A DNA stretch of 58,096 bases from the IMG/VR virus record IMGVR_UViG_3300027609_000006, positions 1 through 58,096 of that record, one strand, 5' to 3'. The stretch is from a virus. Each line of letters opens with the position of its first letter. Positions within the stretch are counted from its first letter, which is position 1. This document shows, piece after piece, positions 21,237 to 40,825 of the stretch. The position numbers were made by a program, and so were the translations under genes. The notes under the pieces are model-generated. The model was not told the DNA's origin. It made no database searches and saw only the letters and a program-made list of their open reading frames with translations.

Positions 21237-21240
21237 ACAA

Positions 21241-25355: not shown

Positions 25356-25365
25356 AAGGATTTTT

Positions 25366-25836: not shown

Positions 25837-25847
25837 GAATTCTTTTT

Positions 25848-28053: not shown

Positions 28054-29177
28054 ACTTCATCTTCCTGAGCGTTCCAACATTCGAGCCGTGGGACTGGACC
28101 AACCCGGATACCGTGGGAATCGGCGGCTCCGAAACCTCGCACATCGAGATGAGCAACCGGCTCTCAGACCGCGGCCACAGCGTCTATTCGTACGGCCCCA
28201 CGCCGTTCAAGGAGCCGACCGTCAACCCGCACGGCGTGACCTGGGAGCGCTGCGACAACGATCAGAATATCTGGCGCCGCGAGGGCGTCTGGGTCATCTA
28301 TCGCGATCCGCAGTCTATTGACGATGTGCACCCGGACCAACCTGCATGGTTGATCTGCCAGGATGTGGATTATCCGCAGCTCACTGAGGAGCGCGCCCGC
28401 AAGTTCACCCGCATCGTGACCCTCTGCGAAACACACGCGTTCTATATGCGCCTTCGCTTTCCGCATCTCGCGGATCGGATTTGCGTTTCGTCGAATGGCA
28501 TCAAGTCGGAGCTAATCGAAGCTGCGCTGAAGAATCCGCCCACGCGCAACCCCAAGCGGCTGATGTACGCATCGAGCCCCGACCGGGGACTGATCCACCT
28601 AGCGACGGTTTTCAGCCGGGCGCGCGAAGTGATCTCCGATCTGGAATTACACGTGTACTACGGCTTCAATAATATCGACAAGGTCGTAGAGAAAAGCCAG
28701 CACGTCCGCAGAATCACGAACGACATCCGCCGGCAGCTCGACCAGCCGGGCATCGAGTGGCACGGCCGCACCGCGCAACCGGAGTTGATTCAGGAGTGGC
28801 TCAAGGCGGGCATCTGGTGCCACCCATCGAGCTTTACGGAAACCTCCTGCATCACCTGCATGGACGCGCAGGCGCTGGGGGCGATCCCGATCACAACTCC
28901 CACCTGGGCCATCGGCGACAACGTCAAGCACGGCGTGTTCATCGAAGGCGATCCGTACAACGATAATCTGACGCGGGCGCGGTACACGCTGGAGTTGATC
29001 CGCCTCGCGAGCGATGAAAAACGGCAGGCCGAAATTCGCGCGGAGATGATGCCCTGGGCGCAAGGCTTTTTCGGCTGGGAGAAGTTCGTGGACCAGTGGG
29101 AAGAGTGGGCGCGGGAAGATCTGAGCCAATCCCAGATTCGGCTTGTCCCGCGAGTCCTTCAGGAGGCAGTGGCGTGA
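28050..29177 (+). CDS. Glycosyltransferase, GT-B (group 1/GT4-like)
   Basis: GIGGSETSHIEMSNRLSDRGHSV and a C-terminal E..E region (FTETSCITCMDAQALGAIPI). Confidence 0.7.
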   Translation: MNFIFLSVPTFEPWDWTNPDTVGIGGSETSHIEMSNRLSDRGHSVYSYGPTPFKEPTVNPHGVTWERCDNDQNIWRREGVWVIYRDPQSIDDVHPDQPAWLICQDVDYPQLTEERARKFTRIVTLCETHAFYMRLRFPHLADRICVSSNGIKSELIEAALKNPPTRNPKRLMYASSPDRGLIHLATVFSRAREVISDLELHVYYGFNNIDKVVEKSQHVRRITNDIRRQLDQPGIEWHGRTAQPELIQEWLKAGIWCHPSSFTETSCITCMDAQALGAIPITTPTWAIGDNVKHGVFIEGDPYNDNLTRARYTLELIRLASDEKRQAEIRAEMMPWAQGFFGWEKFVDQWEEWAREDLSQSQIRLVPRVLQEAVA

Positions 29178-29725
29178 ACGACTCCATTAAAGATCCCATG
29201 ATCTACCAGGGCCAGTTCGGTTTTCAGGCGCGTTACGCAACCGGGAAGGTGCTCAACGTCGGCTGCAACAGCGATGGGGCCAAGTTCCGCGAGCGCGGCG
29301 GGGTCAATATCGACCTGTTCCGAAAGGACGATCACACGGGCTGGGATCTGCCGGTGGACGTGCAAGCCGACGCGCGGCGGTTGCCGTTCGGTCCGAACTC
29401 TTTCGATTCCGTTGTGCTCGGAGAAATTCTAGAACACATGCAGACCCACGACGCCGTTGCATCGCTGATCGAAGCGAAAACGGTGTTAAAGTCGGGCGGG
29501 CGCGTGGTGGCAACGATCCCGCACGATGACCGCGGCGGGCCGGATCACATACCGGAATATGCACCAGGAATCGCGGCCTATCACTACCGAGAAATCACGC
29601 GCGTTGAGTTTTTCGATTGGATCCGCGCGGCAGGCCTGAAAATTCAGGCGTGGGCGAAGATCGTGCATGTGTGGGGGAAAACGGGGACGGGGATTATGGC
29701 TGTTCCCAGGGAAGGGGGCCTGTGA
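29174..29725 (+). CDS. Class I SAM-dependent methyltransferase
   Basis: VLNVGCN, DSVVLGEILEHM, LKSGGRVV. Confidence 0.7.
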   Translation: MNDSIKDPMIYQGQFGFQARYATGKVLNVGCNSDGAKFRERGGVNIDLFRKDDHTGWDLPVDVQADARRLPFGPNSFDSVVLGEILEHMQTHDAVASLIEAKTVLKSGGRVVATIPHDDRGGPDHIPEYAPGIAAYHYREITRVEFFDWIRAAGLKIQAWAKIVHVWGKTGTGIMAVPREGGL

Positions 29726-30009
29726 CGCTTCCCACGATAGGCCGAGGCCCGATCATGAGCATACAAAATGCAGAGCGGAGCATCGCCGCAGACAGTGATC
29801 CGGTCTGTCATCAGCGATGGGGCAGGTTGGCGTTGATCGATATCGGGGACAGTGTTTATATCGCAAAGGAGCGCCCTGACGGCGGTCGCGACATCATCGC
29901 AATCATAACTCTCGATGATAGATGGACGCCATACACACGAACGGGCGCTGTTGAGCGATCAGGCTCTCTCCAAGTCGCAGTTCAGAACGAGGCCAAAACG
30001 TCATGCTGA
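29722..30009 (+). CDS. Hypothetical protein
   Basis: GTGA overlap with the upstream ORF. Ends ..NEAKTSC in a degenerate R arm. Confidence 0.45.
   Translation: MTLPTIGRGPIMSIQNAERSIAADSDPVCHQRWGRLALIDIGDSVYIAKERPDGGRDIIAIITLDDRWTPYTRTGAVERSGSLQVAVQNEAKTSC
29947..30002 (+). repeat. SAR arm, R-form, degenerate
   Basis: GCTGTTGAGCGATC..CAGAACGAGGCCAAAACGTC, then ATG 30003. Confidence 0.55.
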
Positions 30010-30710
30010 CGCGAAAGAAAACCATCGGGACGGTCGGATACATGGGCGGCGTCATGGCCCTGCCGGAGCCCTTCGTCTACTCCTGGACGCAGATGATCGA
30101 ATTCAATCAGGACGCGCTCTGCCAGGAGGATCAGCAGATCCATTACACGCGAACGCAGTACAGCTTGCATTCGGCGGCGCGTAACGACCTGGTCGAGCGG
30201 ATGCGCGGCGACTGGCTGTTGCAGCTCGACACCGATATCGTGTTCGATCCCGACTTCTGCGCACGCCTGGTGCGGGTGATGGAAGTTTATAATCTCGATA
30301 TCGTCACGGGCGTCTACCCGTACAAAAGCAACCCCGGCGTTCCGACGCTCTATCGCCACAATTCCGAAATTGGCCGGCATGATCCAATCGCGGTTCCTGA
30401 AGAAGCGATGGGCATGGAAGTTTTCGAAGTGGATTCCGCCGGCGGCGGCTGCTTGCTGGTAAAGCGCTCCGTCTTCGCGCGAATCCTCAACGAGCTGAAG
30501 CAACATCCCTTCGAGATGATTCCCCCGATGGGGGAAGACCACTCGTTTTTCGCGCGCGCCCGCAAATTGGCAATCAAAGCCCATTGCGCCTGGCAAGTGC
30601 AGGCCGCGCACCTCGGATTTAAACAGGTCGTGTACCAGCACAATCCCGACCTGCCAATTTTGAACCAATACGCGGCGACCGCCGCCAGAAAAGGAGAACT
30701 ACACGCATGA
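30003..30710 (+). CDS. Glycosyltransferase family 2-like
   Basis: LQLDTDIVF (DxD), GGGCLLVKRSVF, GEDHSFF. Confidence 0.65.
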   Translation: MLTRKKTIGTVGYMGGVMALPEPFVYSWTQMIEFNQDALCQEDQQIHYTRTQYSLHSAARNDLVERMRGDWLLQLDTDIVFDPDFCARLVRVMEVYNLDIVTGVYPYKSNPGVPTLYRHNSEIGRHDPIAVPEEAMGMEVFEVDSAGGGCLLVKRSVFARILNELKQHPFEMIPPMGEDHSFFARARKLAIKAHCAWQVQAAHLGFKQVVYQHNPDLPILNQYAATAARKGELHA

Positions 30711-31054
30711 TCGTAAACTACCTGAACGCAGGCGGGCCGGGCAACGTCGCTCCGACAGTGGCTCAAGCGCTCACGTTCAATACGCTGAACGTGTCGCTGA
30801 GTCCGTCATCGACTCTCGACACATCGCAGGCCATCACCACCAACTGGGGACTCCCGCCCTCGGATATTTCCGCCGGTTGGCCGTTCATCCACATTCAACC
30901 GATGGATTTCACGGCTGGATCTTCGGGATGGTACAACATCAGCCAGGCTCCGAGTTTTGTGATTGTCGGTCGCGTCGGAACCACGGCGGGAATCGATACC
31001 GCGAACGCTCAGGTGATTGTCTCAATCGCACGTCCGATTTCGTTAGTTCGATAA
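30707..31054 (+). CDS. Hypothetical beta-rich protein
   Basis: ORF track. Confidence 0.6.
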   Translation: MIVNYLNAGGPGNVAPTVAQALTFNTLNVSLSPSSTLDTSQAITTNWGLPPSDISAGWPFIHIQPMDFTAGSSGWYNISQAPSFVIVGRVGTTAGIDTANAQVIVSIARPISLVR

Positions 31055-31201: not shown

Positions 31202-31357
31202 ATGTTCATCACCCGAGTAACGAAGGTCGTCAATCCGCATCATGCATCTGCTCACCGGAGCAGGTCCGTAGCGGAATCAGGGGGAAGTCCGTCTTTCTCG
31301 AACCCAGCGGCTCACATGCTGACGCTGGGATTTATCAATCCCAAAGGGAGGGTCTTA

Positions 31358-31891
31358 ATGGCAAAAAGCAAAGCCAGCAGACCGCGTCACGCGTCTGCCA
31401 AAGGTTCGCATCATCACAAGAGCTCGAATCCGCATAAGAAGCGGCGAAAAAATCCTCAGTTTCTCGGCACCGCAGTAAAGCCGATGAAAATGGTGGAACT
31501 GGTCGCCGGAGGTCTGGTCGGACTCGGGGTTAACAACCTCGCCATGGCCGCGCTTCCGACGGCGCTGACGGGTAATGCCTTCGGTGCAGTCGCCGGATCG
31601 GTGGTTATCGCGCTCGCGTCCGGCTGGGCCGGCGCGTTCGTCGATAAGGAATTCGGCGCGGCGATCGCGTTCGGCGGGCTCATGGCCGCCGGTCAGATCG
31701 CGATCAACCAATGGATTCCGTCCGTTGGTTCGACGATCGGACTGTCGGGCCGCGGCACGGGTGATTTCGTCGGCGGAAAAGTGGTACCGGGCGGGTTGCT
31801 CAGCTCGGGCATCACCATGAACGCAGGCGGCAATTCAATGGGTGGTGGTCCTACGAGCGCATATCCGGCTCCGTACGCCATCGCAGCGTAG
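31358..31891 (+). CDS. Basic N-terminus plus Gly/Ala-rich membrane protein (alternative start 31202)
   Basis: GGGAGGG lies 6 nt before ATG 31358. KKRRKNPQ, then hydrophobic segments. Carries the same VVPGGLLSSG motif as 25366..25836. Confidence 0.55.
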   Translation: MAKSKASRPRHASAKGSHHHKSSNPHKKRRKNPQFLGTAVKPMKMVELVAGGLVGLGVNNLAMAALPTALTGNAFGAVAGSVVIALASGWAGAFVDKEFGAAIAFGGLMAAGQIAINQWIPSVGSTIGLSGRGTGDFVGGKVVPGGLLSSGITMNAGGNSMGGGPTSAYPAPYAIAA

Positions 31892-31947: not shown

Positions 31948-32646
31948 ATGTCCATGTCCGCAGCAATGGCCCAGCAGGCCACGCAAACGGCGATTAACAA
32001 TGTGTCTGCCAATATGCAGGCCAACGCAGTCGCCGCCATCACCGCGCAACAGCAGTTCATTATCAATTCGTTCCGCGGTCAGATTTACATTTCAAACCAG
32101 CTTGACGTCGAGGACACCCCGCTGTACGACACGATCACGTACACCGCGGGCCAGTCGATCACCGGCAACCAGGGAGGCAATTCGTCCTGGTTCACCAACG
32201 TCGAAAATAGCTCCGGAAAGACGCTCGCTCAGACCAATATGACGCAGAACGGGAAACTGGACGCGCCCAAGGCGTTCTCGGTTTTCGGTATCCGGCTCAA
32301 CTGGTCCGAGGGGATTCTGCGCTCGGATCTGCAAACGCTGCTCGATAGTTGGGCTTTCGACTTCTGGCTGGGCGATAAGTCGTACCAGCGCGGAAATATC
32401 CGCCACTTCTCTTCGGGGATGGGGATTTCCGGCTACACCACCAAGACTGCGGAATCGTTCTACACCAACGGCCTGCCCGGCCGTCAGTCGATGAACATGC
32501 TGTCGGTGAAACTGGTGATCGCGAATCAGATGAGCTTCCAGGCTTATCTGACCGGCTCGAACACTGCGCAGGTGCTGTCGTCTTCAGGCGCCGGGCTGAT
32601 CTTCCTGTGCGAATTAGTGGGTCTGTTCGCTCGCGGCGTGCAGTAG
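31948..32646 (+). CDS. Candidate major virion (jelly-roll-like) protein
   Basis: Strong AGGAG 8 nt before the ATG, followed by a 136-nt non-coding gap. Beta-rich composition. Function is inferred only. Confidence 0.6.
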   Translation: MSMSAAMAQQATQTAINNVSANMQANAVAAITAQQQFIINSFRGQIYISNQLDVEDTPLYDTITYTAGQSITGNQGGNSSWFTNVENSSGKTLAQTNMTQNGKLDAPKAFSVFGIRLNWSEGILRSDLQTLLDSWAFDFWLGDKSYQRGNIRHFSSGMGISGYTTKTAESFYTNGLPGRQSMNMLSVKLVIANQMSFQAYLTGSNTAQVLSSSGAGLIFLCELVGLFARGVQ

Positions 32647-32782
32647 AATTGATCTGAGAGGTGGGAGCGGTAGTTCTGGGAGGAACGTTTCCACTTTTTG
32701 ATCTTCCCTCGGGTTCGCTTGGGGGATTTGAAAGAGAGGGTGGGGTGACATCACCTCCGAGTGTTACTCCGCCTTCTTTTTG

Positions 32783-32840
32783 TTTTGGCCTCACCGCTAA
32801 TCGATCTTTCGCATCAAGGCGGTGGGTTCGACATGGGAGG
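32783..32840 (+). repeat. SAR arm, F-form
   Basis: TTTTGGCCTCACCGCTAATCG..GGTGGGTTCGACATGGGAGG, 4 nt before GTG 32845. Confidence 0.9.
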
Positions 32841-32844
32841 TTCT

Positions 32845-33021
32845 GTGAACAGAACAGAGCAAATTCGGCAGTGGTTGAGCGTGGTTCTCGGACCCACCGC
32901 GCGGGTCGAAGCTTATTCACCGGAGTACGTCTGGCAGCGGTTCCGGGACATGTGGGGATTTTACGGCGTTGAGATCATGAGCGCGTGGGGCGCTCCGCCG
33001 TTGCACTTTACGATATTCTGA
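32845..33021 (+). CDS. Small hypothetical protein
   Basis: GTG start after GGGAGG. Sequence MNRTEQIRQWLS. Confidence 0.4.
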   Translation: MNRTEQIRQWLSVVLGPTARVEAYSPEYVWQRFRDMWGFYGVEIMSAWGAPPLHFTIF

Positions 33022-33035
33022 CGGGGAGAAAAAAC

Positions 33036-33218
33036 ATGGCACTCAAATTTGGTTCGCCCGCGTGGCGCAAGAAGTACGCACCTAAGAAGAAAAAGCGATC
33101 CGCGAACAAGAAGCGCAAACCGGCGAAACGGAAGACCGCCAAGAAAAAGCGGACACCGAATCCGTGGAAGCGGCCGAAGCAGGTGCGCGTCCGCAAGGGC
33201 AAATTGGAAGTTCGGTAA
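33036..33218 (+). CDS. Very basic 60-aa protein (DNA-condensing candidate)
   Basis: KKYAPKKKKRSANKKRKPAKRKTAKKKRTPNPWKRPK. Confidence 0.55.
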   Translation: MALKFGSPAWRKKYAPKKKKRSANKKRKPAKRKTAKKKRTPNPWKRPKQVRVRKGKLEVR

Positions 33219-33228
33219 CGATCCAGCG

Positions 33229-33284
33229 GGCGGTGTCGAGTAATCAAAACTTGGCCCTGCCGCGATTCAGAACGAGGCCAAATT
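33229..33284 (+). repeat. SAR arm, R-form
   Basis: GGCGGTGTCGAGTAATC..CAGAACGAGGCCAAATT, then ATG 33285. Confidence 0.75.
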
Positions 33285-33740
33285 ATGAGCACATATCCCA
33301 TCAACCAATTCGCACCAGACTATTTCCAGGGCCTCGCACTGGACCCGAACGCGTCTGTCGATCCCAAACCCTTCAACTACGTCTACAACCCGCCGAACGG
33401 CCAACTTACCGCAGATCAGGAGATCGACGGCGACACGGTCTCGATTCAAACGGACGCGGATTTCTACGCCTTCGGCTGGTACATCTCACTGTTCACTGGC
33501 GCGTTTCAGATCCGCCTCGCGGATTCGACCGGCTACCAGTTGCAAAGCGGCTTCATTAATTCGGGCGCGCTTTCGCAATCTTCAAACCAACCCACGGTGT
33601 TTTCGCCGGCGCATCTGTTCCCGGCTGGATCGAAGATCCTGATCGACATCGAAGATTTGTCGGATGCAACCAATCCGTTGCAAATCGTGTTTCCCGGTGT
33701 CAAGTTGTATAAGATCATTGGAAGGGCGGGGAAGGGGTAG
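33285..33740 (+). CDS. Beta-rich virion-protein candidate
   Basis: ORF track. FYAFGWYISLFTGAFQIRLADSTGYQL resembles the N-terminal half of 37227..38378. Confidence 0.65.
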   Translation: MSTYPINQFAPDYFQGLALDPNASVDPKPFNYVYNPPNGQLTADQEIDGDTVSIQTDADFYAFGWYISLFTGAFQIRLADSTGYQLQSGFINSGALSQSSNQPTVFSPAHLFPAGSKILIDIEDLSDATNPLQIVFPGVKLYKIIGRAGKG

Positions 33741-33750
33741 GAAGGTGTTT

Positions 33751-33808
33751 ATGTTGGCCTCATTCGAAACTGCGGACCTTCAAATCTCTCCCGTTCGACC
33801 AGGAGAGG
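33751..33808 (+). repeat. SAR arm, F-form (translated as an N-terminus)
   Basis: ATGTTGGCCTCATTCGAAAC..CCCGTTCGACCAGGAGAGG. GGAAGGTG lies 3 nt before the ATG. Confidence 0.85.
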
Positions 33809-33996
33809 TTATCCGGCTTGTAGCGGACGCAAGTTACAACGCAGGCAGCTCGGATGCGTGGTTTGTAGCAGCTTGGATCATGGCGGCGGGCGCGGCGTTC
33901 GCGATGTTCAATGCGGACAAACAGACCACGGCATTCATGGTCGGAGCGGCATTCGGATCGATGTGGAACGCGTACGACGCGGCAAGGAGTTCGTGA
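33751..33996 (+). CDS. Small membrane protein
   Basis: MLASFETADLQISPVRPGE.., then two TM segments. Confidence 0.55.
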   Translation: MLASFETADLQISPVRPGEVIRLVADASYNAGSSDAWFVAAWIMAAGAAFAMFNADKQTTAFMVGAAFGSMWNAYDAARSS

Positions 33997-34488
33997 GTGA
34001 GCACCGCACCCTATCCAATTCTCGACGGCTTCCGGCTCAATACGCTGCTGCGTTGCGATCTGACGTTCGGATCCATGGCCATCGATCAATACAACGCCTT
34101 GCGCCGCGTGCGCGCCTTTAGGTCCAAAGGCTGGTGCATCCCGAACGACACGCAATCGGAACTCATTCCCGCCTTCGACTCCTACGAGTATCAGGTCCAC
34201 ATGAAGCCTGGCTCCGCGATCTGGGGCTATACGTTCACTGGGGATTCGAGTGGCACGGATTCGTTTCAGGTGCGGGAGACGTGCACGGATGTCCCGTTGT
34301 TTTCCGAGGTTCTGACGAAGCAGCCGGAGACTGCGCCATTACTCGGAGAGGCATCCTGGGCTCAGCAGCAGATGCTTCCCAGTTTGTTGGTTGTTCCGGC
34401 GCCGGGCCTTTTGCACGTCGAGATTGCGACCACCAGCAGCACGCCCAGGGCGATTCAGCTTATTCTGTGGGGAGGGGAGCCTGCGTAA
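33997..34488 (+). CDS. Beta-rich virion-protein candidate
   Basis: ORF track, GTG start. Confidence 0.65.
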   Translation: MSTAPYPILDGFRLNTLLRCDLTFGSMAIDQYNALRRVRAFRSKGWCIPNDTQSELIPAFDSYEYQVHMKPGSAIWGYTFTGDSSGTDSFQVRETCTDVPLFSEVLTKQPETAPLLGEASWAQQQMLPSLLVVPAPGLLHVEIATTSSTPRAIQLILWGGEPA

Positions 34489-34832
34489 TGCTCACAGATA
34501 ACATTGATGTTTTGGCCTCGCCGGAATCAGGTGCTTCGCGTCCGGTTGAGAATGCTCGACAAGGGGAATTTCCTGACGCCCGTTATCAAGAGCGGTTTCA
34601 CCCTTTCGCCGGCGAATCAGAAAAACCATGCCTGATCTGCGGTGGAGAGCGAAAGCATAAATCTCACTACGATAAAAACGGATTTTTCGGCTATACAACG
34701 CTTGATGCAGCGCTGAATTCCACGGGCAGATGGGTATTCGAGACTAAGAAATATCCAGGACGGCCAAAAAGGGAGACTGTCGAACCCACGGCCTCCGACG
34801 AAGCTGGGGTTACCGGTGAGGCCAAACAATGA
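34488..34832 (+). CDS. Cassette ORF, zinc-ribbon protein
   Basis: TAATG overlap in. F arm near the N-terminus, CLICGGERKHKSH, R arm at the C-terminus (..TGEAKQ, ATGA overlap out). Confidence 0.5.
   Translation: MLTDNIDVLASPESGASRPVENARQGEFPDARYQERFHPFAGESEKPCLICGGERKHKSHYDKNGFFGYTTLDAALNSTGRWVFETKKYPGRPKRETVEPTASDEAGVTGEAKQ
34510..34567 (+). repeat. SAR arm, F-form
   Basis: TTTTGGCCTCGCCGGAATC..GAGAATGCTCGACAAGGGG. Confidence 0.8.
34774..34828 (+). repeat. SAR arm, R-form
   Basis: AGACTGTCGAACCCAC..CCGGTGAGGCCAAACA, then ATG 34829. Confidence 0.9.
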
Positions 34833-35152
34833 GATCGACCCACACCTACGTCACCCTCGAAATCAGCGCCGCCGGATACGATGAGATCGCGAAAAAGCTC
34901 CGAGACGCCGACTACGGCCACTGCTTCAACGCTGCGGGTGAAATCGACATGACAGGAATCGCAGTGATCCGCGCGGCCTGCGTTCGTGGCTGCGCGTTCT
35001 GTTCCTCGGCCGCGACATTCCCCGATGTTGATCTCTGCGATAAGTGCGCCGCCAAGTTCGCCGCCAAATTGAAGTCTCTCCCTGATTGGCCCTTAGCGCG
35101 AACGCAAGGGCAGTCGGCAGAGCACCACACTGAGGGGAGCGCCAAGCCATGA
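34829..35152 (+). CDS. Cys-containing hypothetical protein
   Basis: Contains CAFCSS..CDKCAAKF. C-terminus PLARTQGQSAE..EGSAKP is a d-type R arm. Confidence 0.55.
   Translation: MRSTHTYVTLEISAAGYDEIAKKLRDADYGHCFNAAGEIDMTGIAVIRAACVRGCAFCSSAATFPDVDLCDKCAAKFAAKLKSLPDWPLARTQGQSAEHHTEGSAKP
35090..35148 (+). repeat. SAR arm, R-form, d-type
   Basis: CCCTTAGCGCGAACGCAAG..GAGGGGAGCGCCAAGCC, then ATG 35149. Confidence 0.8.
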
Positions 35153-35376
35153 GTGATTCTGAGGCGGTTCGAACGCTGGAGCGACGTCAAAAGCATTTGA
35201 TCTCTCTTCTTGAGCCAAAACGCGGGTACGATGTGAATTCGCTACATTTCATTCGAGCCGAAGTTGCAGCGTTGTCAGTCGCTCTTTCGGCAATCGAGGA
35301 CCGTCGAAAACTTCTCCTGGTCGGACGCTTTACGCCGCACGAAGCCGCGCTGCCGACGGAGGCCAAAACATCATGA
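35149..35376 (+). CDS. Small hypothetical protein
   Basis: ORF track. Ends ..LLLVGRFTPHEAALPTEAKTS (R arm). Confidence 0.5.
   Translation: MSDSEAVRTLERRQKHLISLLEPKRGYDVNSLHFIRAEVAALSVALSAIEDRRKLLLVGRFTPHEAALPTEAKTS
35311..35372 (+). repeat. SAR arm, R-form (type specimen)
   Basis: CTTCTCCTGGTCGGACGCTTTACGCCGCACGAAGCCGCGCTGCCGACGGAGGCCAAAACATC, then ATG 35373. Confidence 0.95.
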
Positions 35377-36317
35377 GCCGCGGACTCGCAGACATCGTAC
35401 CCCTGAACATCCCCCCAGGAGCCGTAACCACACAAGCAGCGGGATGGTTAAACGGACCGGATGGAAACTGGTACTGGACAGGCTCCACTCCTCCCCCTTT
35501 GAATATCCCCATCACTTCCGGGCCGGGCATACCCTCAAACGCAGGTTGGGTCATTGCACCCAACGGACAACTGGTATGGACCGGCCCCGGCACTCAGCCG
35601 ACGATTCTTCCCGCGTCCGTGACGCCGCCGGGCAGCGTGATCTCCGTGCCTTCTGGTGCGCAAGGGCCGATCCTGAACTGGACGCCCCAGCCGCTGCTAC
35701 CCGATTCGATCCTTCCGCCGCCGCTACAGCGTTCGAACCCGCTGGCCGCACCTGCACAGTGGATTCCCAACAAATACGACTTCCAGATCATCGGAAGGGC
35801 CAAGAAATGGCAATGGGTCGCCGCGCACGGAGGCCTGAAGTCGTGCTGCCGTATCCCGGAGCTCGGCGCGCCAATTTACGATCTGCCGCCGTGGGAAAAG
35901 ATGCCGTCGAACAGCTTCGAATTCCAGGAAATGAATGGTTTGCCGATCGCAGATTTTCAGAGCGGTGGAATTTTCACAGGCGACGATGTCCTTATCCTAT
36001 CAATCCAGGTGCCTTCAGGTTACGACGGCGTCATCAACCGGTTCGTGGCCGGAACGACGGGAGTAACGGGCTACGCGGATTTCACGGATTCGATCAACTG
36101 GCGCCTGAAATACGGCATCCGCTATGCAAAGAACCTGGGCGATGTCGATAATACATTCGGATCGTTCAACAACGCTATCCAGGTTCCCCAGACGTATATT
36201 TGCCGGGTGATTTCCGGGCAAACAATCGAAGTTTACGCGAACGTGCCGGTGGGTTCCCCAATCGCGGGAGGCTCAATCAACGCCGGCGTTTTCGGATGGT
36301 TTTATCCGCGGCGGTAA
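35373..36317 (+). CDS. Beta-rich virion-protein candidate (314 aa)
   Basis: ORF track. Pro-rich N-terminus, then a beta-rich domain. Confidence 0.7.
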   Translation: MSRGLADIVPLNIPPGAVTTQAAGWLNGPDGNWYWTGSTPPPLNIPITSGPGIPSNAGWVIAPNGQLVWTGPGTQPTILPASVTPPGSVISVPSGAQGPILNWTPQPLLPDSILPPPLQRSNPLAAPAQWIPNKYDFQIIGRAKKWQWVAAHGGLKSCCRIPELGAPIYDLPPWEKMPSNSFEFQEMNGLPIADFQSGGIFTGDDVLILSIQVPSGYDGVINRFVAGTTGVTGYADFTDSINWRLKYGIRYAKNLGDVDNTFGSFNNAIQVPQTYICRVISGQTIEVYANVPVGSPIAGGSINAGVFGWFYPRR

Positions 36318-36343
36318 GGCCGCAAAGGAATAATGTTTATTTT

Positions 36344-36604
36344 ATGGCTATGCCCACTGACCAGCAAGTGAACAAGCTTTTCGATTTCCGGTTCAACATC
36401 ACCACCGTACTCTCCGTTTTCGCGATGCTCTGGGCGGCCGCGATGGGTATGGCGAAAATGGAGACGCAGGAAAGCCACGATAGGGACGTGAAGCGGATCG
36501 AATCCGACTACGTGCGGCGCGACGTGAACGACCTGACCGACCGCGAGCTACGGGAATGGCTTATCCGCATCGAGAAAAAGCTGGATGAGCGAAACCGAAG
36601 ATGA
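36344..36604 (+). CDS. Single-TM plus coiled-coil protein (holin- or spanin-like, speculative)
   Basis: ITTVLSVFAMLWAAAMGMA, then a charged helix. Confidence 0.5.
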   Translation: MAMPTDQQVNKLFDFRFNITTVLSVFAMLWAAAMGMAKMETQESHDRDVKRIESDYVRRDVNDLTDRELREWLIRIEKKLDERNRR

Positions 36605-36843
36605 CAGATGCCGTTCAAATTGAACTGATCCGCGCACTCGCTATCATCCCCGGATCGATTGGCGGAATTATAGCCGCATGGTTTTCATATAAGGCCGCGA
36701 CCCACGCTAAGGAAGCTGTGGATGTGGCGAAAAACGTCGAGAACAACACGAACGGCATGTCCCATGCGTTGAATGATCTCACGGCTAAGTCTTCATACGC
36801 GGCTGGGAGGCTGGATGAAAAAAACGAGGCCAACCAATTATGA
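36601..36843 (+). CDS. Small TM protein (holin-like, speculative)
   Basis: ATGA overlap with the upstream ORF. Contains ALAIIPGSIGGIIAAWFSY. Ends at GAGGCCAACCAATTATGA. Confidence 0.5.
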   Translation: MTDAVQIELIRALAIIPGSIGGIIAAWFSYKAATHAKEAVDVAKNVENNTNGMSHALNDLTAKSSYAAGRLDEKNEANQL

Positions 36844-36974
36844 GACGCATCTTTTTCGGATGCCTCTTCCTTTCTCTCTGCTGGTGCGGACGTGACGGCG
36901 TTCGCAGACAAGAGGGCGCTGTCGAGAAGTCACGAATTGACCAAGCCAAAAATCAGAGCGAGGCCAAAAAATAG
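36840..36974 (+). CDS. 44-aa putative lipoprotein (o-spanin-like, speculative)
   Basis: Hand translation MRRIFFGCLFLSLCWCGRDG..SEAKK. The stop TAG is formed at the junction with the TIR element. Confidence 0.3.
   Translation: MRRIFFGCLFLSLCWCGRDGVRRQEGAVEKSRIDQAKNQSEAKK
36915..36973 (+). repeat. SAR arm, R-form
   Basis: GGCGCTGTCGAGAAG..CAGAGCGAGGCCAAAAAATA. Its A-rich tail is the target of the TIR insertion. Confidence 0.75.
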
Positions 36975-37218
36975 GGAGTTATATATGAGTACAGGAAGGA
37001 TTAAAAATGACAAAAGAACAAATTAATAAAGCTGTGATCGGGGCTGCAAAACGCCTTTCAACTGGCAATAATGAGTACGATACCTATGGGATGGACGTTG
37101 AAATCCTACGAAAACACGCACTAGATAAGGACTTTTCATTTGTGGCTCATGCCGTGCAGCGAAAGATTCACCAAAAAAGGGCAGCGTAATCTTCCACTTA
37201 CTCATGTATATAGCTCCC
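36974..37218. mobile_element. 245-bp TIR element with 8-bp target-site duplication
   Basis: Ends are GGGAGTTATATATGAGTA and (reverse complement) GGGAGCTATATACATGAGTA. Flanked by AAAAAATA at 36966..36973 and 37219..37226. AT-rich interior. Confidence 0.75.
37007..37189 (+). CDS. 60-aa ORF carried by the TIR element
   Basis: ORF track. Function unknown. Confidence 0.4.
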   Translation: MTKEQINKAVIGAAKRLSTGNNEYDTYGMDVEILRKHALDKDFSFVAHAVQRKIHQKRAA

Positions 37219-37226
37219 AAAAAATA

Positions 37227-38378
37227 ATGCCAAGTTCCCGACTCTACACCCCGCCCCCAGGCTTCTACGATTTACCATACACCTACGCCTTCGACGCATC
37301 AACCTTGGTGAACGGGAACAGTTATCCCAACCAGCAGGTGTACATTCAGGGAGGATATGGAGACTTCGCAGTTCGGCGAGTAGTGGGGTTGAACCGGATC
37401 CTAGCCGGTAACGGAACCGGCACTTTCCAGCTAATGCGCGCCTCGCAAGGCGTCTACCAGTCCTCGAACCCGGTTCAAGCGCCGAACGCGCCCGAGCTCG
37501 CGATTGTTCCCGAAGAGTGGTATCCCGAAACCGGCCAAATCGGCTTTGACCTGTTCGGCATCGCCCTCCCATCTAACACAGCTACCGCGCAGATCGCATT
37601 CCAAGGCTCCAGAAGGCTCCCGGGCACCAGCCCCCTCATTGGATACAAGGCGGACCCCAGGACCTACACCTACATCGCGGAAGGCAACCTCACACAGGTC
37701 GCCTCACAGAACGCCCGGGTGGTCACCTACACACCCATCGACAATTACGACTTTCTGCTGTACCAACTTATGATATTTCAGGAGGCACCCGCATCGCTGG
37801 AGATCGATCAGAGCGATTCAGGATATAACATCACCCTGGTAGCGGTCGAACCTGGTCCGGCGGGCAACCAGATCAGTTTCGAAGTCACCGGAATCGGTAC
37901 CCCCAATTTGCCACTCGTGATCACAGTCGCCGGCAGCGCGATCTCCGTACAGCCGCAGACGAACGGATCCGGTTTGCCTGTTGCTTTGATGTCGGGGTTG
38001 GTCGCGCAGTTGAACGCCAATCCCGCAGTTGCCGCGCTGGTCACGATAACGACCACGACTCCGGCTGGATCCCCCTTCCTGGTATCCCCGGCTGAATTTC
38101 TCACCGGCGGCGGATTGAGTCCGATCACATCCCCGGTGTGCTCGATACAGGTCTTCGATCAGAATCAGGTGGGCATTTCAAACATACCTATTCTGGACAT
38201 CTTCTATAACGGAGCGCCCGGTACGCCTTACGAGAACGGGGCAGTGGTACCGCCGCTGATGTTCCGGCGAAACACGCTGGTGGAGATTGACTTTTACTCC
38301 CAGATCACAAACCCCGCTCTGTTGCCGCTGGGAATCGTCGTCTATCTGATCGGCCGCAAACTATATCCCTGTGGGTGA
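37227..38378 (+). CDS. Large beta-rich virion-protein candidate (383 aa, possibly two jelly-roll-like halves)
   Basis: ORF 37140..38378 trimmed to the ATG after the duplicated AAAAAATA. Function is inferred. Confidence 0.7.
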   Translation: MPSSRLYTPPPGFYDLPYTYAFDASTLVNGNSYPNQQVYIQGGYGDFAVRRVVGLNRILAGNGTGTFQLMRASQGVYQSSNPVQAPNAPELAIVPEEWYPETGQIGFDLFGIALPSNTATAQIAFQGSRRLPGTSPLIGYKADPRTYTYIAEGNLTQVASQNARVVTYTPIDNYDFLLYQLMIFQEAPASLEIDQSDSGYNITLVAVEPGPAGNQISFEVTGIGTPNLPLVITVAGSAISVQPQTNGSGLPVALMSGLVAQLNANPAVAALVTITTTTPAGSPFLVSPAEFLTGGGLSPITSPVCSIQVFDQNQVGISNIPILDIFYNGAPGTPYENGAVVPPLMFRRNTLVEIDFYSQITNPALLPLGIVVYLIGRKLYPCG

Positions 38379-38809: not shown

Positions 38810-39079
38810 TCAACCACAGGACTGCCCCGAAGACTTCGGCATATTCGAAGTGCGGACCATTTCCATGAGGTCCAGATTGTAAGCCGTGAGCTTACCCAAC
38901 CGGACATCAATGCATATTCCCGTCGCATCAAATGGATATTCGAAACCGTTCTCCAAAACACCGATTATGACTAGTTCCTCAGCCAGCGGAGGAACGCCCT
39001 TGATCCGAACCAATTCCTTCCCGCCCCGCGTCCTATACACGCATCCGATTGAGGATTCCCACGCTTTTCGATCAAGCAT
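38810..39079 (-). CDS. Hypothetical protein
   Basis: ATG follows GGAGGCCGAAGAAA. Confidence 0.55.
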   Translation of the reverse strand: MLDRKAWESSIGCVYRTRGGKELVRIKGVPPLAEELVIIGVLENGFEYPFDATGICIDVRLGKLTAYNLDLMEMVRTSNMPKSSGQSCG

Positions 39080-40133
39080 TTTCTTCGGCCTCCTTGGGAT
39101 TGAGTTTTGCAACCCGAGACTTTTCCGCCCGACCAGGAGGAGTACTGGATTGCAACCGCTGTTTAATTGTCTCCAGATCCAACATCGAATGCGGCCTCAT
39201 CGCCGGCAACTTCGTAATCTGTCGGCTAACACCATCCGGAGCCTTGCTGGAATCGTACGTCGTAATGCGCGGGAACCTTCCAGACTCCAAAACTCCCAGT
39301 TCGGGCGCCCAAATCCATCCTTCACCGGTTCGGAGGGAAGCCAGCGATCGCAGCATTTCCCTGCCCTCGTGCGGTTGTGCCCATTCCCCAATCCAATCCT
39401 CGATCGCGCGGCGGTCCTGGGGGGCGATCAGCCGCAATACGATCAGCGTTTCGGACTGAGTAATCGAATCTTTGTGGACTTTCGCCGGGCGTTGGGAAAT
39501 GAGGACAATTCGTAGGCCAATTCCACGGCCGAGACTAACCAGGTTGTTGGCAGCATCGAGCATCCGCACGCCGGCGGCATCCGATGGCCGGGCTTGCGGC
39601 ATGAACAGGTGCGCTTCGTCGATCATTAGCGTGAGTGGGCCGCGGTTCGTCCGCAGCAGAGTTTCCGCGAAATCCGCGAAGAACGTCGTGCGCTCCTTGA
39701 TGGTCATGATGCGGGTGTCTAGCACGGCGGACGTGTCGGTGGTCCCGATGATTTCGCCCAGCGCGGTGCCGTGATGGGGCAGCAGAAATACATCATCCGG
39801 CGGCCGCGCTATCGGATGAGGTAGGCCATGTTCTCGCCCAAACAGATAGATCGGGAATCCCGGCTTCTTTCCAGTCGAATCCGCTCGCAAGCCCCACCAG
39901 ACGCCCGTGGGATCGATCACGCAGAGGCGCCGGTGTTTTGCCAAGAGCAGTTCCGCGAAGCCTTTCGCTGCGTAACTTTTTCCCGAGCCAGTTTTCCCCA
40001 GAATCGCGATATGCTGCTCCAGTAGTTTCATGAACAGTGCGCGCCGCTGGATCGGATTGGCCGGATCTCCACCTTCGGTGAGTGTGGAGACGAGCTGCTG
40101 AGCTGCTCGGTGTAATGAGGAGAGGTCTTTCAT
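39072..40133 (-). CDS. FtsK/HerA-superfamily ATPase (candidate genome-packaging ATPase)
   Basis: Walker A ILGKTGSGKS. Walker B LTLMIDEAHLF. RIVLISQRP. Confidence 0.75.
   Translation of the reverse strand: MKDLSSLHRAAQQLVSTLTEGGDPANPIQRRALFMKLLEQHIAILGKTGSGKSYAAKGFAELLLAKHRRLCVIDPTGVWWGLRADSTGKKPGFPIYLFGREHGLPHPIARPPDDVFLLPHHGTALGEIIGTTDTSAVLDTRIMTIKERTTFFADFAETLLRTNRGPLTLMIDEAHLFMPQARPSDAAGVRMLDAANNLVSLGRGIGLRIVLISQRPAKVHKDSITQSETLIVLRLIAPQDRRAIEDWIGEWAQPHEGREMLRSLASLRTGEGWIWAPELGVLESGRFPRITTYDSSKAPDGVSRQITKLPAMRPHSMLDLETIKQRLQSSTPPGRAEKSRVAKLNPKEAEENA
39084..39142 (-). repeat. SAR arm, R-form
   Basis: Minus strand CTCCTCCTGGTCGGGCGG..CCAAGGAGGCCGAAG. Confidence 0.8.
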
Positions 40134-40136
40134 CCT

Positions 40137-40457
40137 TTATTTGGCCTCGCCGGAGGGTCGGGCTTCGTCGGAAGCTGCACGCTCGACATGGGCGACGATC
40201 TCCCTTTTGGCTATTTCCCGGATGAATCCTGCTTCGTCGCGCCAATGCCCCAATTCCTCACCACATCTAGCACATCGAACATCCACTTGGAATTTGTACC
40301 CGCGAAAGCGATCTACCAGAAGAGCGCCACGATGAAAACAAAAAACGGGCCATCTGAACTCTGAGCGCGCGGCGACAATTTGCACCCCGCCCCTGACGTA
40401 CCCAGCTTTAATATATTCCAAAAACTTGTCAACGGAAGGTTTCTCTGATTGGCTCAT
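40137..40457 (-). CDS. Zinc-ribbon protein inserted between the two ATPase copies
   Basis: GGGAGGA lies 3 nt before the ATG. Contains CARCGEELGH. Ends ..PSGEAK in an R arm. Confidence 0.55.
   Translation of the reverse strand: MSQSEKPSVDKFLEYIKAGYVRGGVQIVAARSEFRWPVFCFHRGALLVDRFRGYKFQVDVRCARCGEELGHWRDEAGFIREIAKREIVAHVERAASDEARPSGEAK
40138..40194 (-). repeat. SAR arm, R-form
   Basis: Minus strand GCCCATGTCGAGCGTGC..CGGCGAGGCCAAATAAAGG, then ATG 40133. Confidence 0.85.
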
Positions 40458-40825
40458 AAATCCTCCCAAGCTGCGACGAGGGTGGCCCACGCGTGCGGAT
40501 CAAGCGGAAGGTCCGCGTGCTCCCCGCCAAAAACGTAGATCGGGAAGGCTGGCCGCTTCCCGGTTTTGTCGGATCGGAGGCCCCACCAGACGCCCGTGGG
40601 GTCCAGGATGCAGACGCGCTGCTTTTTTGCGAGCAATAATTCGGCGAATCCCTTCGCAGTGAAGGTTTTCCCGCAACCTGTTTTTCCCAAAATTGCGATG
40701 TGCTGCTCCAGCAGCTTCATGAACAGCGCGCGCTGCGCGATCGGATTGGCCGGATCTCCACCTTCGGTGAGCGTGGAGACGAGCTGTTGAGCTGCTCGGT
40801 GTAATGAGGAGAGGTCGCCTTTCAT
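40454..40825 (-). CDS. Truncated paralog of the FtsK/HerA ATPase (N-terminal ~105 aa, Walker A only; possibly a pseudogene)
   Basis: MKGDLSSLHRAAQQLVSTLTEGGDPANPI..ILGKTGCGKT..DPTGVWWGL aligns with residues 1-105 of 39072..40133. The first ~90 nt are nearly identical. Confidence 0.6.
   Translation of the reverse strand: MKGDLSSLHRAAQQLVSTLTEGGDPANPIAQRALFMKLLEQHIAILGKTGCGKTFTAKGFAELLLAKKQRVCILDPTGVWWGLRSDKTGKRPAFPIYVFGGEHADLPLDPHAWATLVAAWEDL

Follow-up and report, generated by a model that had tools for sequence, protein, structure and literature searches.

In a 2018 survey, prokaryotic viruses with double-jelly-roll (DJR) capsids had genomes of ~7-18 kb (PMC5894146). The genome studied here has 58 kb, far above the genome sizes of known bacterial viruses built on jelly-roll capsids; an earlier note on this DNA had called it large for such a virus, and rightly so. 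In PRD1, the penton protein P31 and the N-terminus of the spike protein P5 are homologous (38% identity, E 1e-20) and their genes are adjacent. A pair of genes in the present genome parallels P31/P5, and it lies in a block that most likely builds a capsid without a tail, as judged here from sequences and predicted folds.

The genome and its family

Bases 1-99 of the window (the whole stretch of DNA analysed, 58,096 nt) are the same as bases 57998-58096, and this 99-nt terminal overlap shows that the genome is complete and circular, with ~57,997 bp. Because of the overlap, and because an independent assembly of 58,117 bp encodes an identical copy of the 383-aa protein described below, we regard 58 kb as the true genome size. 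The virus belongs to a large uncultured family whose viral contigs cluster at 40-63 kb. Its genome has one tRNA-Thr, only two ORFs of more than 400 aa, and genes for resolvase, PIN, DUF3800 and methyltransferase proteins.

We scanned the list of ~100 ORFs against Pfam and PHROGs (ORF 5194-5862 against Pfam only). The scan gave no match to terminase, portal, HK97, tape-measure or baseplate/tail families, in agreement with the earlier note, which had recognised no tailed-phage hallmark genes, and no match to relaxase, T4SS, partition or plasmid replication families. The 232-aa and 383-aa proteins of the module presented below have no match among 50,697 phage records, and the 232-aa protein has none among 72,556 plasmids.

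The conserved module

The block at 31948-38378 is syntenic and conserved across this family. It includes the five ORFs in which the earlier note had seen a candidate capsid module of beta-rich proteins, and all five are present:

31948..32646, + strand: 232-aa protein, candidate major shell protein (AlphaFold2 model, conservation)
33037..33218, + strand: 60-aa, very basic, Lys/Arg-rich ORF, the sole ORF in the gap that follows the 232-aa gene
33285..33740, + strand: 151-aa protein, candidate penton-base-like single jelly roll (jelly-roll homology with the 383-aa protein)
33997..34488, + strand: 163-aa conserved module protein (9 related loci, 41-79% identity)
35373..36317, + strand: 314-aa protein (8 related loci, 45-72% identity)
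37227..38378, + strand: 383-aa protein, vertex or host-recognition candidate, alternatively a double-jelly-roll capsomer (AlphaFold2, Foldseek)

We take the contiguous gene order 232-aa, 151-aa, 383-aa as ancestral. The five module ORFs have no sequence match in Pfam, PHROG or PDB, and we found no sequence or profile link between their products and known capsid proteins. Judged by eye, none of the five proteins has a signal-peptide-like N-terminus, as expected for cytoplasmic assembly. The beta-rich character proposed for them holds in the AlphaFold2 models of the 232-aa and 383-aa proteins, and for the 151-aa protein by homology only. The nearest structural neighbours of the two models are capsid proteins of non-tailed, membrane-containing viruses, which together with the synteny favours a capsid module, but the fold matches are weak (best Foldseek E 3.6e-4, TM 0.45 or lower).

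The 232-aa protein is encoded by the best-conserved gene of the module (mean column identity of 72%). It has 211 homologues, and among the 120 listed the identity is 62-99% and the length ~206-241 aa. The gene is in single copy in each genome, and the strong Shine-Dalgarno (SD) sequence ascribed to it earlier is indeed there, as an AGGAG 8 nt 5' of the ATG. The model (pLDDT 76.5) has an N-terminal helix of ~40 residues (3-42) followed by a single jelly-roll beta-sandwich. Its highest Foldseek probabilities were to the SPV1 MCP (6oj0_A, 0.97), followed by proteins of SH1 (6qt9_h, 0.92), SPMV (1stm, 0.89) and HHIV-2 (6h82_E, 0.77), those of SH1 and HHIV-2 being capsid proteins, all at E>=7e-3; no match reached E<=1e-3, no TM value exceeded 0.45, and lectin-type sandwiches of the C1q/TNF-like kind have similar scores against this model. 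Conservation and modelled fold suggest that it is likely the major shell protein. It would then differ from the SH1/P23-77 pattern, as a single-jelly-roll MCP without a second paralogue. Two relatives encode distant paralogues of it (the window has none), one with an apparent twin-arginine (Tat) export signal, which suits a secreted lectin-like protein better than a capsid protein and so counts against the shell role.

The 383-aa protein, whose start at the ATG at 37227 is backed by an identical database protein (P0121), is strongly beta in its model (pLDDT 88.9, pTM 0.82). Two tandem jelly-roll sandwiches, J1 (~1-135) and J2 (136-197 and 296-383), are accompanied by an alpha/beta insert (~198-295). 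Its top eight PDB matches are all double-jelly-roll capsid or scaffold proteins, with the best E-values for SGIV (3.6e-4) and Faustovirus (5.8e-4), and D13 and ASFV p72 also among them; the TM values against DJR capsid proteins are 0.24 or lower. The BFVD matches are mixed and include uncharacterised tailed-phage proteins, e.g., Bcep43 gp01. The family is modular: some members have 275-306 aa and lack the insert, others reach 609-671 aa with an FG-GAP insert, and the N- and C-terminal strands are conserved, with the variable domains placed in loops. Identity in relatives decreases from J1 (45-89%) to J2 (29-75%) and the insert (19-46%). In some relatives the only versions have ~690 aa and come in two copies; their large inserts comprise an FG-GAP repeat region in the member that was run against Pfam. 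The insert of the 383-aa protein recurs as a repeat unit in proteins of 900-2181 aa. The two jelly-roll-like halves anticipated for this protein are thus modelled as two sandwiches. Yet its behaviour is closer to that of a vertex or host-recognition protein than to that of a capsid protein: it evolves faster than the rest of the module, its inserted domains can be swapped, genomes have 1-2 copies of it, and no SD sequence lies 5' of its gene.

The 151-aa protein had been thought to resemble the N-terminal half of the 383-aa protein, and hhalign aligned it with residues 1-135 over 115 columns (93.9%, E 1.5e-7), a similarity that is not significant by BLASTP (E 0.09). It also aligned with the second sandwich (56%, E 1e-4), as did J1 with J2 (46%, E 2e-4), and a plain hmmsearch with the J1 profile retrieves the 151-aa family (E 6e-7 to 5e-3). 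These profile comparisons confirm that the 151-aa protein is paralogous to J1 and J2, and by this homology its fold would be a jelly roll too. It is found in 12 relatives (40-89% identical), mostly directly between the 232-aa and 383-aa genes.

At the profile level, the 163-aa protein resembles none of the other proteins of the module. In the alignment of the 314-aa protein, a variable Pro/Gly-rich N-terminal region precedes a conserved ~200-aa C-terminal domain with an invariant terminal YPRR; this protein may serve as a spike or belong to the minor capsid proteins. The gap 3' of the 232-aa gene (638 nt) had been described as non-coding. It has no gene common to relatives beyond the closest one, but does hold the 60-aa ORF, which is kept only in that closest relative (L023), may encode a DNA-binding protein, and is of uncertain membership in the module.

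The ATPase and the genes around the module

The genes around the module that bear on its function are the following:

17141..26324, + strand: block of predicted membrane proteins with a DnaJ-domain protein (hydropathy scan; DnaJ PF00226, 7.5e-13)
28050..31054, + strand: conserved upstream block (Pfam; syntenic in 9-11 related loci), made up of the next four entries
28050-29177, + strand: GT4-type glycosyltransferase (Pfam)
within 29096-29725, + strand: SAM methyltransferase (Pfam)
30003-30710, + strand: GT2 glycosyltransferase (Pfam)
30707-31054, + strand: 115-aa conserved protein
31202..31891, + strand: protein predicted to have two transmembrane segments, basic at its N-terminus (15 related loci), whose gene adjoins the 232-aa gene on its 5' side
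39072..40133, - strand: 353-aa HerA/FtsK-superfamily ATPase (Pfam DUF87, 3.5e-9; phrog_2666, 2.3e-20)
40454..40825, - strand: 123-aa truncated copy of the N-terminal part of the ATPase, Walker A kept (83% identity over 100 aa; DNA repeat D1)
56450..57058, - strand: lytic-transglycosylase-like protein with a C-terminal TM anchor at 182-202 (phrog_873, 5.6e-11; phrog_7182, 4.6e-8)

The ATPase had been singled out as the only packaging-type NTPase. A six-frame scan of the genome found a canonical Walker A motif within a substantial ORF only in this protein and in its truncated copy, which is probably a remnant. With hhalign, the ATPase core aligned with known packaging ATPases, those of P23-77 and phiKo at 98%, PM2 P9 at 93.5% and PRD1 P9 at 65%. 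Nevertheless, it is not specifically a packaging-type enzyme. The clade is widespread outside the family, mostly in other phage contigs and in plasmids; there are homologues in 87 PLSDB plasmids and in a tailed phage that encodes a terminase of its own, and the closest relative in the phage database is in a tailed phage. Of 80 viral loci centred on the ATPase, only 3 carry family genes, and in most relatives no ATPase homologue is encoded closer than 10 kb to the capsid genes. In the window, the ATPase gene is outside the structural operon, on the strand opposite to the module. Given this distribution of the clade, it is a packaging-motor candidate by elimination only.

By the hydropathy scan, at least 13 predicted membrane proteins are encoded in the same strand block as the module. 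Those at 17141..26324, often Cys-rich and anchored at the C-terminus, are partly conserved in relatives. They are candidate components of a virion membrane or envelope, and the Cys-rich, tail-anchored ones look more like exposed envelope proteins than like typical internal-membrane proteins. The transglycosylase-like protein is a candidate cell-wall enzyme, either virion-associated or acting in lysis.

Competing readings of the module

We put at about 0.5 the probability that the block encodes the virion proteins of a new lineage of jelly-roll viruses without tails, with the 232-aa protein as the likely major component of the shell and the 151-aa and 383-aa proteins as parts of the vertex. The same kind of virus could instead have a PRD1/PM2-type architecture (Bamfordvirae), an arrangement that is possible but doubtful. 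The inserts of the 383-aa protein would then be "towers", the 151-aa protein a single-jelly-roll penton, and the 232-aa protein a minor, cementing, membrane-linking or short trimeric spike protein. This would suit the DJR capsid proteins of several families that top the PDB matches of the 383-aa model, the size of its conserved core (275-306 aa, close to the 269 aa of PM2 P2), and the conserved ends and variable loops, as in hexon-type proteins. The neighbouring standalone paralogue suits an MCP-plus-penton pair, and C1q/TNF-like trimeric heads are also among the matches of the 232-aa model, whose N-terminal helix could form a coiled coil. Against this architecture, conservation among the three proteins is lowest in the 383-aa protein (in L025, 39% identity, compared with 71% and 57% for the 232-aa and 151-aa proteins, respectively), its J2 is particularly divergent, and its TM values against DJR capsid proteins are low. 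Genomes with only the two ~690-aa versions and their large inserts are hard to reconcile with a protein needed in at least a thousand copies, and it is the 232-aa gene that has the AGGAG, not the 383-aa gene.

Other readings do away with the geometric shell, or with the virus. A membrane-bounded (pleomorphic or enveloped) particle is unlikely; in it the jelly-roll and Cys-rich anchored proteins would be spikes or matrix, and the DNA would be condensed by basic proteins without a motor. The tail-anchored proteins and several glycosyltransferases are in line with such a particle, as are the small, very basic ORFs of the genome, the ATPase unlinked to the module in most relatives, and the best Foldseek probability of the 232-aa model, which is to SPV1, a virus not known to have a recognisable packaging ATPase. 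Yet a geometric shell agrees better with a 232-aa protein that is extremely conserved and encoded in single copy, and with the penton/spike-like paralogue pair; the basic ORF at 33037 is kept only in the closest relative, and known pleomorphic prokaryotic viruses have genomes several-fold smaller. We give similarly little credence to a plasmid or other mobile element, in which the block would encode intracellular or surface lectin-like and glycan-modifying proteins, and the ATPase, resolvase, PIN, DUF3800 and methyltransferase genes would be plasmid cargo. Such cargo is present, ATPase homologues do occur in plasmids, and the C1q/TNF-like matches, the Tat signal of one paralogue and the insert repeated in very large proteins point the same way. 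But the scanned ORFs lack the plasmid families, the 232-aa protein is in none of the 72,556 plasmids, the relatives are catalogued viral contigs of a narrow size range, the five module proteins show no signal peptide by eye, and the genome has a tRNA and a TM-anchored transglycosylase. Very improbable is a tailed phage with terminase, portal, HK97 capsid and tail genes diverged past detection and the beta-rich proteins in tail fibres or baseplate: uncharacterised tailed-phage proteins do appear among the BFVD matches of the 383-aa model, and the closest phage-database relative of the ATPase is in a tailed phage, but there were no hits to the corresponding families among the scanned ORFs, no P-loop protein besides the HerA-like ATPase, and neither of the two ORFs above 400 aa is like a portal, terminase or tape measure.

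Under the preferred reading, with the 232-aa protein in the shell, this would be a ~58-kb circular dsDNA virus without a tail, whose particle is built from jelly-roll proteins, probably around a lipid membrane or beneath one. The 232-aa single jelly roll with its N-terminal helix would be the abundant shell subunit and the 151-aa protein the penton-base-like single jelly roll. In the 383-aa vertex protein, J1 would be seated in the shell like its 151-aa paralogue, and J2 with the exchangeable inserted domains would project outward and bind the host, following the logic of P31 and P5 in PRD1. The 163-aa and 314-aa proteins would be further structural parts, the HerA/FtsK ATPase is the sole candidate for an ATP-driven packaging motor, and virion components may be substrates of the glycosyltransferases and the methyltransferase encoded upstream.

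A conserved module of candidate beta-rich proteins

The capsid module proposed in the earlier note comprises five open reading frames (ORFs), and we confirmed all of them at the following positions.

31948-32646, plus strand, 232-aa protein
33285-33740, plus strand, 151-aa protein
33997-34488, plus strand, 163-aa protein
35373-36317, plus strand, 314-aa protein
37227-38378, plus strand, 383-aa protein

The best-supported reading of the interval 31948-38378 is that of a virion-shell module of a tail-less jelly-roll virus. The original claim stands in part: two of the proteins are modelled as jelly rolls, but the fold matches are weak and there is no profile link to known capsid proteins. None of the five ORFs, nor any member of the 383-aa family, has a Pfam or PHROG match, and PDB sequences compared with profiles of the 232-, 383-, 314- and 163-aa families gave nothing significant. 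The family profiles were also aligned with hhalign to PRD1 P3, P31 and P5, PM2 P2 and P1, P23-77 VP16 and VP17, and the phiKo capsid proteins, and all values were at most 1%.

Database searches gave 211 homologues of the 232-aa protein. The 120 that were listed share 62-99% identity with it, have lengths of ~206-241 aa and in many cases lie on contigs of 40-63 kb; an alignment of 63 sequences has a mean column identity of 72%. Through this protein we found a syntenic block shared by twelve IMG/VR loci. It starts with a protein like that at 26321-27079, continues with a glycosyltransferase (GT4), a methyltransferase, another glycosyltransferase (GT2), a 115-aa protein, a membrane protein with a basic N-terminus and the 232-aa protein, and ends with the 151-aa and then the 383-, 163- and 314-aa proteins. 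The 232-, 151- and 383-aa genes are directly contiguous in most relatives; small genes intervene in the window's own sub-lineage. The three proteins keep the same ranking of conservation across relatives, in this descending order (71%, 57% and 39% identity in the related locus L025). In tblastn searches, 50,697 phage records yielded no match to either the 232-aa or the 383-aa protein, and 72,556 plasmids none to the former. A host scan of 185,579 species-representative genomes gave a single match, a 3.3-kb contig (L026, JASHQK010000645.1) binned with a Candidatus Sulfotelmatobacter (Acidobacteriota) MAG, which is a weak hint, and the only one at hand, that Acidobacteriota are the hosts. A full-text search of the literature found no description of this virus group, an absence that is no proof of novelty.

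Our preferred candidate for the major shell subunit is the 232-aa protein, on four grounds: its gene is the most conserved, is present once in each genome and carries the strongest signal for translation, and its model best matches single-jelly-roll capsid proteins. The strong Shine-Dalgarno sequence ascribed to its gene is indeed present (AGGAG, 8 nt 5' of the ATG). The gap of 638 nt that follows had been called non-coding, which holds except for one ORF encoding a very basic protein of 60 aa, kept in the closest relative only. The model of the 232-aa protein, built from the 63-sequence alignment (pLDDT 76.5, pTM 0.66), predicts an N-terminal helix (residues 3-42) and, after it, a beta-sandwich that includes a single short helix. 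Its PDB matches in Foldseek are all jelly-roll-type sandwiches, with E-values of ~0.01 or worse (none at or below 1e-3) and TM-scores of at most 0.45. The most probable matches are the capsid proteins of viruses with tail-less particles that contain a membrane: SPV1 (6oj0_A, 0.97), SH1 (6qt9_h, 0.92; 6qt9_g, 0.80), and HHIV-2 (6h82_E, 0.77). Other matches include satellite panicum mosaic virus (0.89) and C1q/TNF-like heads (0.5-0.8). Caution about the shell role comes from distant paralogues in two relatives (L002, 28-393; L024, 4118-4759; 28-31% identity), one of which, that of L024, has a twin-arginine-like export signal at its N-terminus (MMAVDRRSFLKVFG...). The window itself holds no paralogue of the 232-aa protein. 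Both paralogues end in an '...ARG[IV]Q'-like C-terminus, as the 232-aa protein does.

The 383-aa protein was modelled from 40 sequences (pLDDT 88.9, pTM 0.82). The suggestion that it could hold two jelly-roll halves is borne out by the model, in which two eight-stranded sandwiches are predicted at residues ~13-132 (J1) and 140-195 plus 296-381 (J2), the second interrupted by a predicted alpha/beta insert at ~198-295 (window 37818-38111). Its resemblance to the 151-aa protein, also noticed before, is not significant by BLASTP (E 0.09) but was confirmed with family profiles. In hhalign, the 151-aa profile aligns with residues 1-135 of the 383-aa protein over 115 columns (93.9%, E 1.5e-7) and with J2 (56%, E 1e-4), and J1 aligns with J2 (46%, E 2e-4). 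A plain HMM of J1 also retrieves the 151-aa family. This homology to the jelly rolls of the larger protein suggests that the 151-aa protein probably has the same fold. It is unrelated to the 232-aa protein (hhalign, 0.1%).

The top eight PDB matches of the 383-aa model in Foldseek are all double-jelly-roll (DJR) capsid or scaffold proteins (E 3.6e-4 to 1e-2), the best being Singapore grouper iridovirus (3.6e-4) and Faustovirus (5.8e-4), with vaccinia D13 and ASFV p72 also among them. Lower matches include Mavirus, STIV, PR772, PBCV-1, two-sandwich proteins such as PHM, and P23-77 VP17. The TM-scores are just 0.09-0.24, so the matches do not establish the specific DJR geometry. Among predicted viral structures the matches are mixed, with uncharacterised proteins of tailed phages and capsid proteins of asfarvirus and ascovirus type.

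Homologues of the 383-aa protein are modular: they have 275-306 aa without the insert and 370-410 aa with it, and in those of 609-707 aa another large insertion (an FG-GAP repeat region in the homologue P0141) immediately precedes the conserved final beta-strand. Both ends of the family are conserved, hence the variable parts would belong to loops around a constant core. Compared with the window's protein, identity is 45-89% in J1, 29-75% in J2 and 19-46% in the insert. Proteins of 900-2181 aa without Pfam match (P0227, P0230, P0236 and others) have 6-12 tandem copies of the insert domain, which appears to be an undescribed domain family, possibly of adhesin type. The gene has no Shine-Dalgarno sequence and occurs in one or two copies per genome, both of ~690 aa in the relative L017. 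The modularity, the gradient of conservation, the copy number and the missing Shine-Dalgarno sequence fit a low-copy, outward-facing protein of the vertex or of host recognition. The conservation pattern, the copy number and the large inserts argue against a role as major capsid protein. Our favoured assignment for the pair of 151-aa and 383-aa proteins is to the vertex, where J1 would be embedded beside the 151-aa protein or would replace it.

Genome form and gene content

Bases 1-99 of the window are an exact direct repeat of bases 57998-58096. This terminal identity indicates a circular (or circularly permuted) genome of ~57,997 bp. A contig of 58,117 bp, assembled independently from another data set, encodes an identical 383-aa protein. 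Family proteins are also encoded on contigs of 116,075 and 182,313 bp; as these lengths are roughly two and three times that of the genome, the contigs may represent concatemer assemblies. The G+C content of the window is ~56% throughout, and only two ORFs exceed 400 aa. There is a single tRNA gene:

57120-57194, minus strand, tRNA-Thr (anticodon CGU)

Because it overlaps the ORF called at 57043-57516, the latter is probably spurious.

We scanned a list of ~100 ORFs against Pfam and PHROGs (ORF 5194-5862 against Pfam only). The recognised genes encode four glycosyltransferase-like proteins, a SAM methyltransferase, a D12 DNA methyltransferase, a PAPS-reductase-like protein, a serine recombinase, proteins with PIN, DUF3800, DUF192 and DnaJ domains, an S8 peptidase, a GH43-like protein, a lytic-transglycosylase-like protein with a C-terminal membrane anchor, and one HerA/FtsK ATPase. 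In agreement with the absence of tailed-phage hallmark genes remarked on from the sequence, the scanned ORFs include no terminase, portal, HK97 capsid, tail or tape-measure family, and none of relaxase, type IV secretion (T4SS) or DNA polymerase. The sole 'terminase' label belongs to phrog_2666, which matches the ATPase.

The GT4/methyltransferase/GT2 trio (28050-30710) lies directly upstream of the shell genes and is kept in 10-11 relatives. Further glycosyltransferase-like genes are found elsewhere:

199-1038, minus strand, glycosyltransferase-like
52226-53320, minus strand, glycosyltransferase-like

Together, the glycosyltransferase and methyltransferase genes suggest a virus-encoded glycan modification of components of the virion or of the host envelope.

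At least 13 membrane proteins are predicted in the structural strand block; they provide the sole, and indirect, evidence for a possible lipid membrane beneath or above the protein shell. Within 17808-25041 (plus strand) there is a run of Cys-rich (6-18 Cys), Ser/Thr/Ala-rich proteins, each with a single C-terminal transmembrane anchor, which is unusual for phages with an internal membrane. A DnaJ-domain protein (23849-24445) is interspersed in this run and is also present in the distant relatives L024 and L025.

Candidate packaging ATPase and relation to known viruses

The earlier note had found a single packaging-type NTPase. A six-frame scan for Walker A motifs agrees, as the only substantial ORFs it identified are the ATPase and a truncated copy of it:

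39072-40133, minus strand, HerA/FtsK ATPase (353 aa)
40454-40825, minus strand, truncated ATPase copy

The ATPase has the motifs GKTGSGKS (Walker A) and MIDEAH (Walker B), and it matches DUF87/HerA (3.5e-9), phrog_2666 (2.3e-20) and, weakly, TrwB/AAA_10-type Pfam families. Its family profile aligns in hhalign with the packaging ATPases of P23-77 (98.3%, E 2.5e-14), phiKo (98.4%), PM2 (P9, 93.5%) and PRD1 (P9, 64.8%). It is the only P-loop protein of a genome without terminase. Its PDB sequence matches are all HerA, and its closest relatives are HerA-like ATPases of replication or transfer modules of phages and plasmids. The closest one in the phage collection is a 'HerA helicase' (MW202482; 33% identical, E 9e-39) of a tailed phage equipped with terminase, portal and capsid genes of its own. 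Homologues are found on many viral contigs (35-66% identity) and on 87 plasmids (33-39%). The common form has 540-600 aa, including a C-terminal extension of ~200 aa that the window's protein lacks, and its neighbours in the loci that we read are recombination and replication genes. The ATPase gene, encoded in the opposite direction, is separated by 0.7 kb from the 383-aa gene and does not adjoin the 232-aa gene. Just 3 of the best 80 viral loci centred on the ATPase contain family genes. Most relatives, surveyed only within 10 kb of the capsid genes, have no ATPase homologue in that range. The top-ranked ATPase lists include only four family contigs (59,868, 57,525, 63,145 and 7,803 bp), in which short forms co-occur with the family (~330-375 aa; 513 aa on the contig of 63,145 bp). 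The relatives in a tailed phage and in plasmids and the unlinked loci weaken a specific assignment to packaging. This role rests on elimination rather than on specific evidence.

For the paralogous pair, PRD1 offers a close parallel. Its penton protein P31 and the N-terminal domain of its spike protein P5, encoded by adjacent genes, are 38% identical in our comparison (E 1e-20), and like the 151-aa and 383-aa proteins they are a small protein and the N-terminal domain of a larger neighbour. Their second domains differ: that of P5 is a collagen-like shaft with a head, whereas the 383-aa protein has a second jelly roll with loop insertions. Both genomes encode many small membrane proteins, a transglycosylase and an FtsK/HerA ATPase. 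Unlike that of PRD1, the window's genome is circular (a circular assembly with the direct overlap of 99 nt) and four times larger, and no protein-primed polymerase or terminal-protein family was found in it, which sets it apart from Tectiviridae.

SPV1, SH1/HHIV-2 and P23-77 have capsid proteins similar in size to the 232-aa protein and form membrane-containing tail-less particles. Genomes measure ~20 kb in SPV1 and ~31 kb in SH1/HHIV-2, the latter being the size that single-jelly-roll prokaryotic viruses (SH1-type) reach. P23-77 shares with the window a PAPS-reductase-like gene and an ATPase that aligns with the window's family profile, and its genome of 17 kb is several times smaller. In the window, we found neither a second paralogous capsid protein nor the block of ATPase, small and large major capsid protein (MCP) genes, i.e., the two paralogous single-jelly-roll MCPs side by side next to an ATPase that are typical of Helvetiavirae (SH1, HHIV-2, P23-77).

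The chief rival of a single-jelly-roll shell is a virus of PRD1/PM2 type with DJR architecture. The 383-aa protein has two consecutive sandwiches, like the DJR MCPs (PM2 P2, PRD1 P3, those of NCLDV, and vaccinia D13), and its minimal core of 275-306 aa is close to the 269 aa of PM2 P2, but there is no profile similarity to these MCPs and the TM-scores do not exceed 0.24. In the 383-aa protein, each half can still be recognised as a relative of the other and of the standalone 151-aa protein, which is unusual for DJR capsid proteins. The other alternatives depart further from a jelly-roll virion. A membrane-bounded, non-icosahedral particle is suggested by the many Cys-rich, tail-anchored membrane proteins; we consider such a particle unlikely. 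We hold a non-viral mobile element to be similarly improbable. A serine recombinase is present and the ATPase has plasmid relatives; no gene family of conjugative or mobilisable plasmids (relaxase, type IV secretion, replication/partition) was detected in the scanned ORFs. A very divergent tailed phage would be in line with the tailed-phage proteins among the structural matches and with the closest phage relative of the ATPase. The scanned ORFs contain none of the markers of Caudoviricetes (HK97-fold MCP, portal, large terminase), and this is by far the least probable of the readings.

To the full reading we assign a probability of about 0.4. On this reading, the window is the type genome of a widespread lineage of bacterial viruses that has so far gone undescribed. 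Its members would lack tails, have jelly-roll capsids, probably contain a membrane and modify glycans; their genomes would measure ~45-63 kb, and their capsid proteins form more than 200 clusters at 90% identity. The lineage's shell protein would have no sequence relative among known capsid proteins, and its vertex protein would result from a recent tandem duplication of a penton-like jelly roll. If so, the vertex protein would be a living intermediate between single and double jelly rolls, and its two jelly rolls and the standalone 151-aa protein provide a concrete system for testing the origin of the double jelly roll by duplication. The earlier note had called 58 kb large for a jelly-roll bacterial virus, and a member of this size would be an outlier relative to the prokaryotic DJR viruses surveyed in 2018, which have genomes of roughly 7-18 kb (PMC5894146). 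Those of this lineage are about three times as large. A common lineage of 58 kb would imply that the jelly-roll architecture scales up in prokaryotes, leaving a smaller difference in size between its prokaryotic representatives and the large eukaryotic viruses of this structural class. Soil viromes, the classification of which relies largely on tailed-phage markers, would gain a sizeable and so far invisible group. The glycosyltransferase and methyltransferase genes, neighbours of the shell genes in every relative examined, suggest as a hypothesis open to test that a bacterial virus could encode the glycosylation of its own capsid.

Repeated elements

A three-box element of ~55 nt, (C)CTCC-TGGTCGAACGC ... 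CGAAGCC ... GAGGCCAAA-NN-ATG, is found at ~40 sites on both strands. Examples are:

21326-21389, three-box element
31140-31203, three-box element
35308-35371, three-box element
38740-38803, three-box element
6968-7022, three-box element
45931-46000, minus strand, three-box element

The element precedes many genes, in the orientation of the gene, and often encodes the '...EAKP' C-terminal tail of the upstream ORF. Full copies number 35, and GGCCAAA occurs at 53 sites against ~8 in shuffled sequences. The closest relatives (L002/L023, L012, L013 and L014) have the element, and family members further removed lack it. It looks like a lineage-specific promoter combined with a ribosome-binding site, and the spacing of its GAAC...CG recalls ECF-sigma promoters. 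An RNA structure was rejected (z-scores of -1.1 to +1.0, no common fold).

Other repeats are confined to single loci. Six iteron-like units of 21 nt (TCGGCAGAATCTCCCGGTAC-like), five of them spaced 21 nt apart, occupy 10842-11025 within the ORF 10607-11422, whose protein product thereby has SPGTSAD repeats; the array could represent a replication origin within an initiator gene. A unit of 42 nt is repeated four times in tandem at 51158-51324, within the D12 DNA methyltransferase ORF (50684-51712, minus strand) and downstream of its recognisable domain. The small genes at 3644-4102 and 4059-4469 (minus strand) are 89% identical in their C-terminal 36 residues, which are underlain by a direct repeat of 112 nt (3638-3749 and 4053-4164, minus strand). 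The truncated ATPase copy (40454-40825) lies ~700 nt upstream of the full gene; it has 83% protein identity over 100 aa to 39829-40127 (minus strand) with an intact Walker A motif, and is a partial tandem duplication or a recombination scar.
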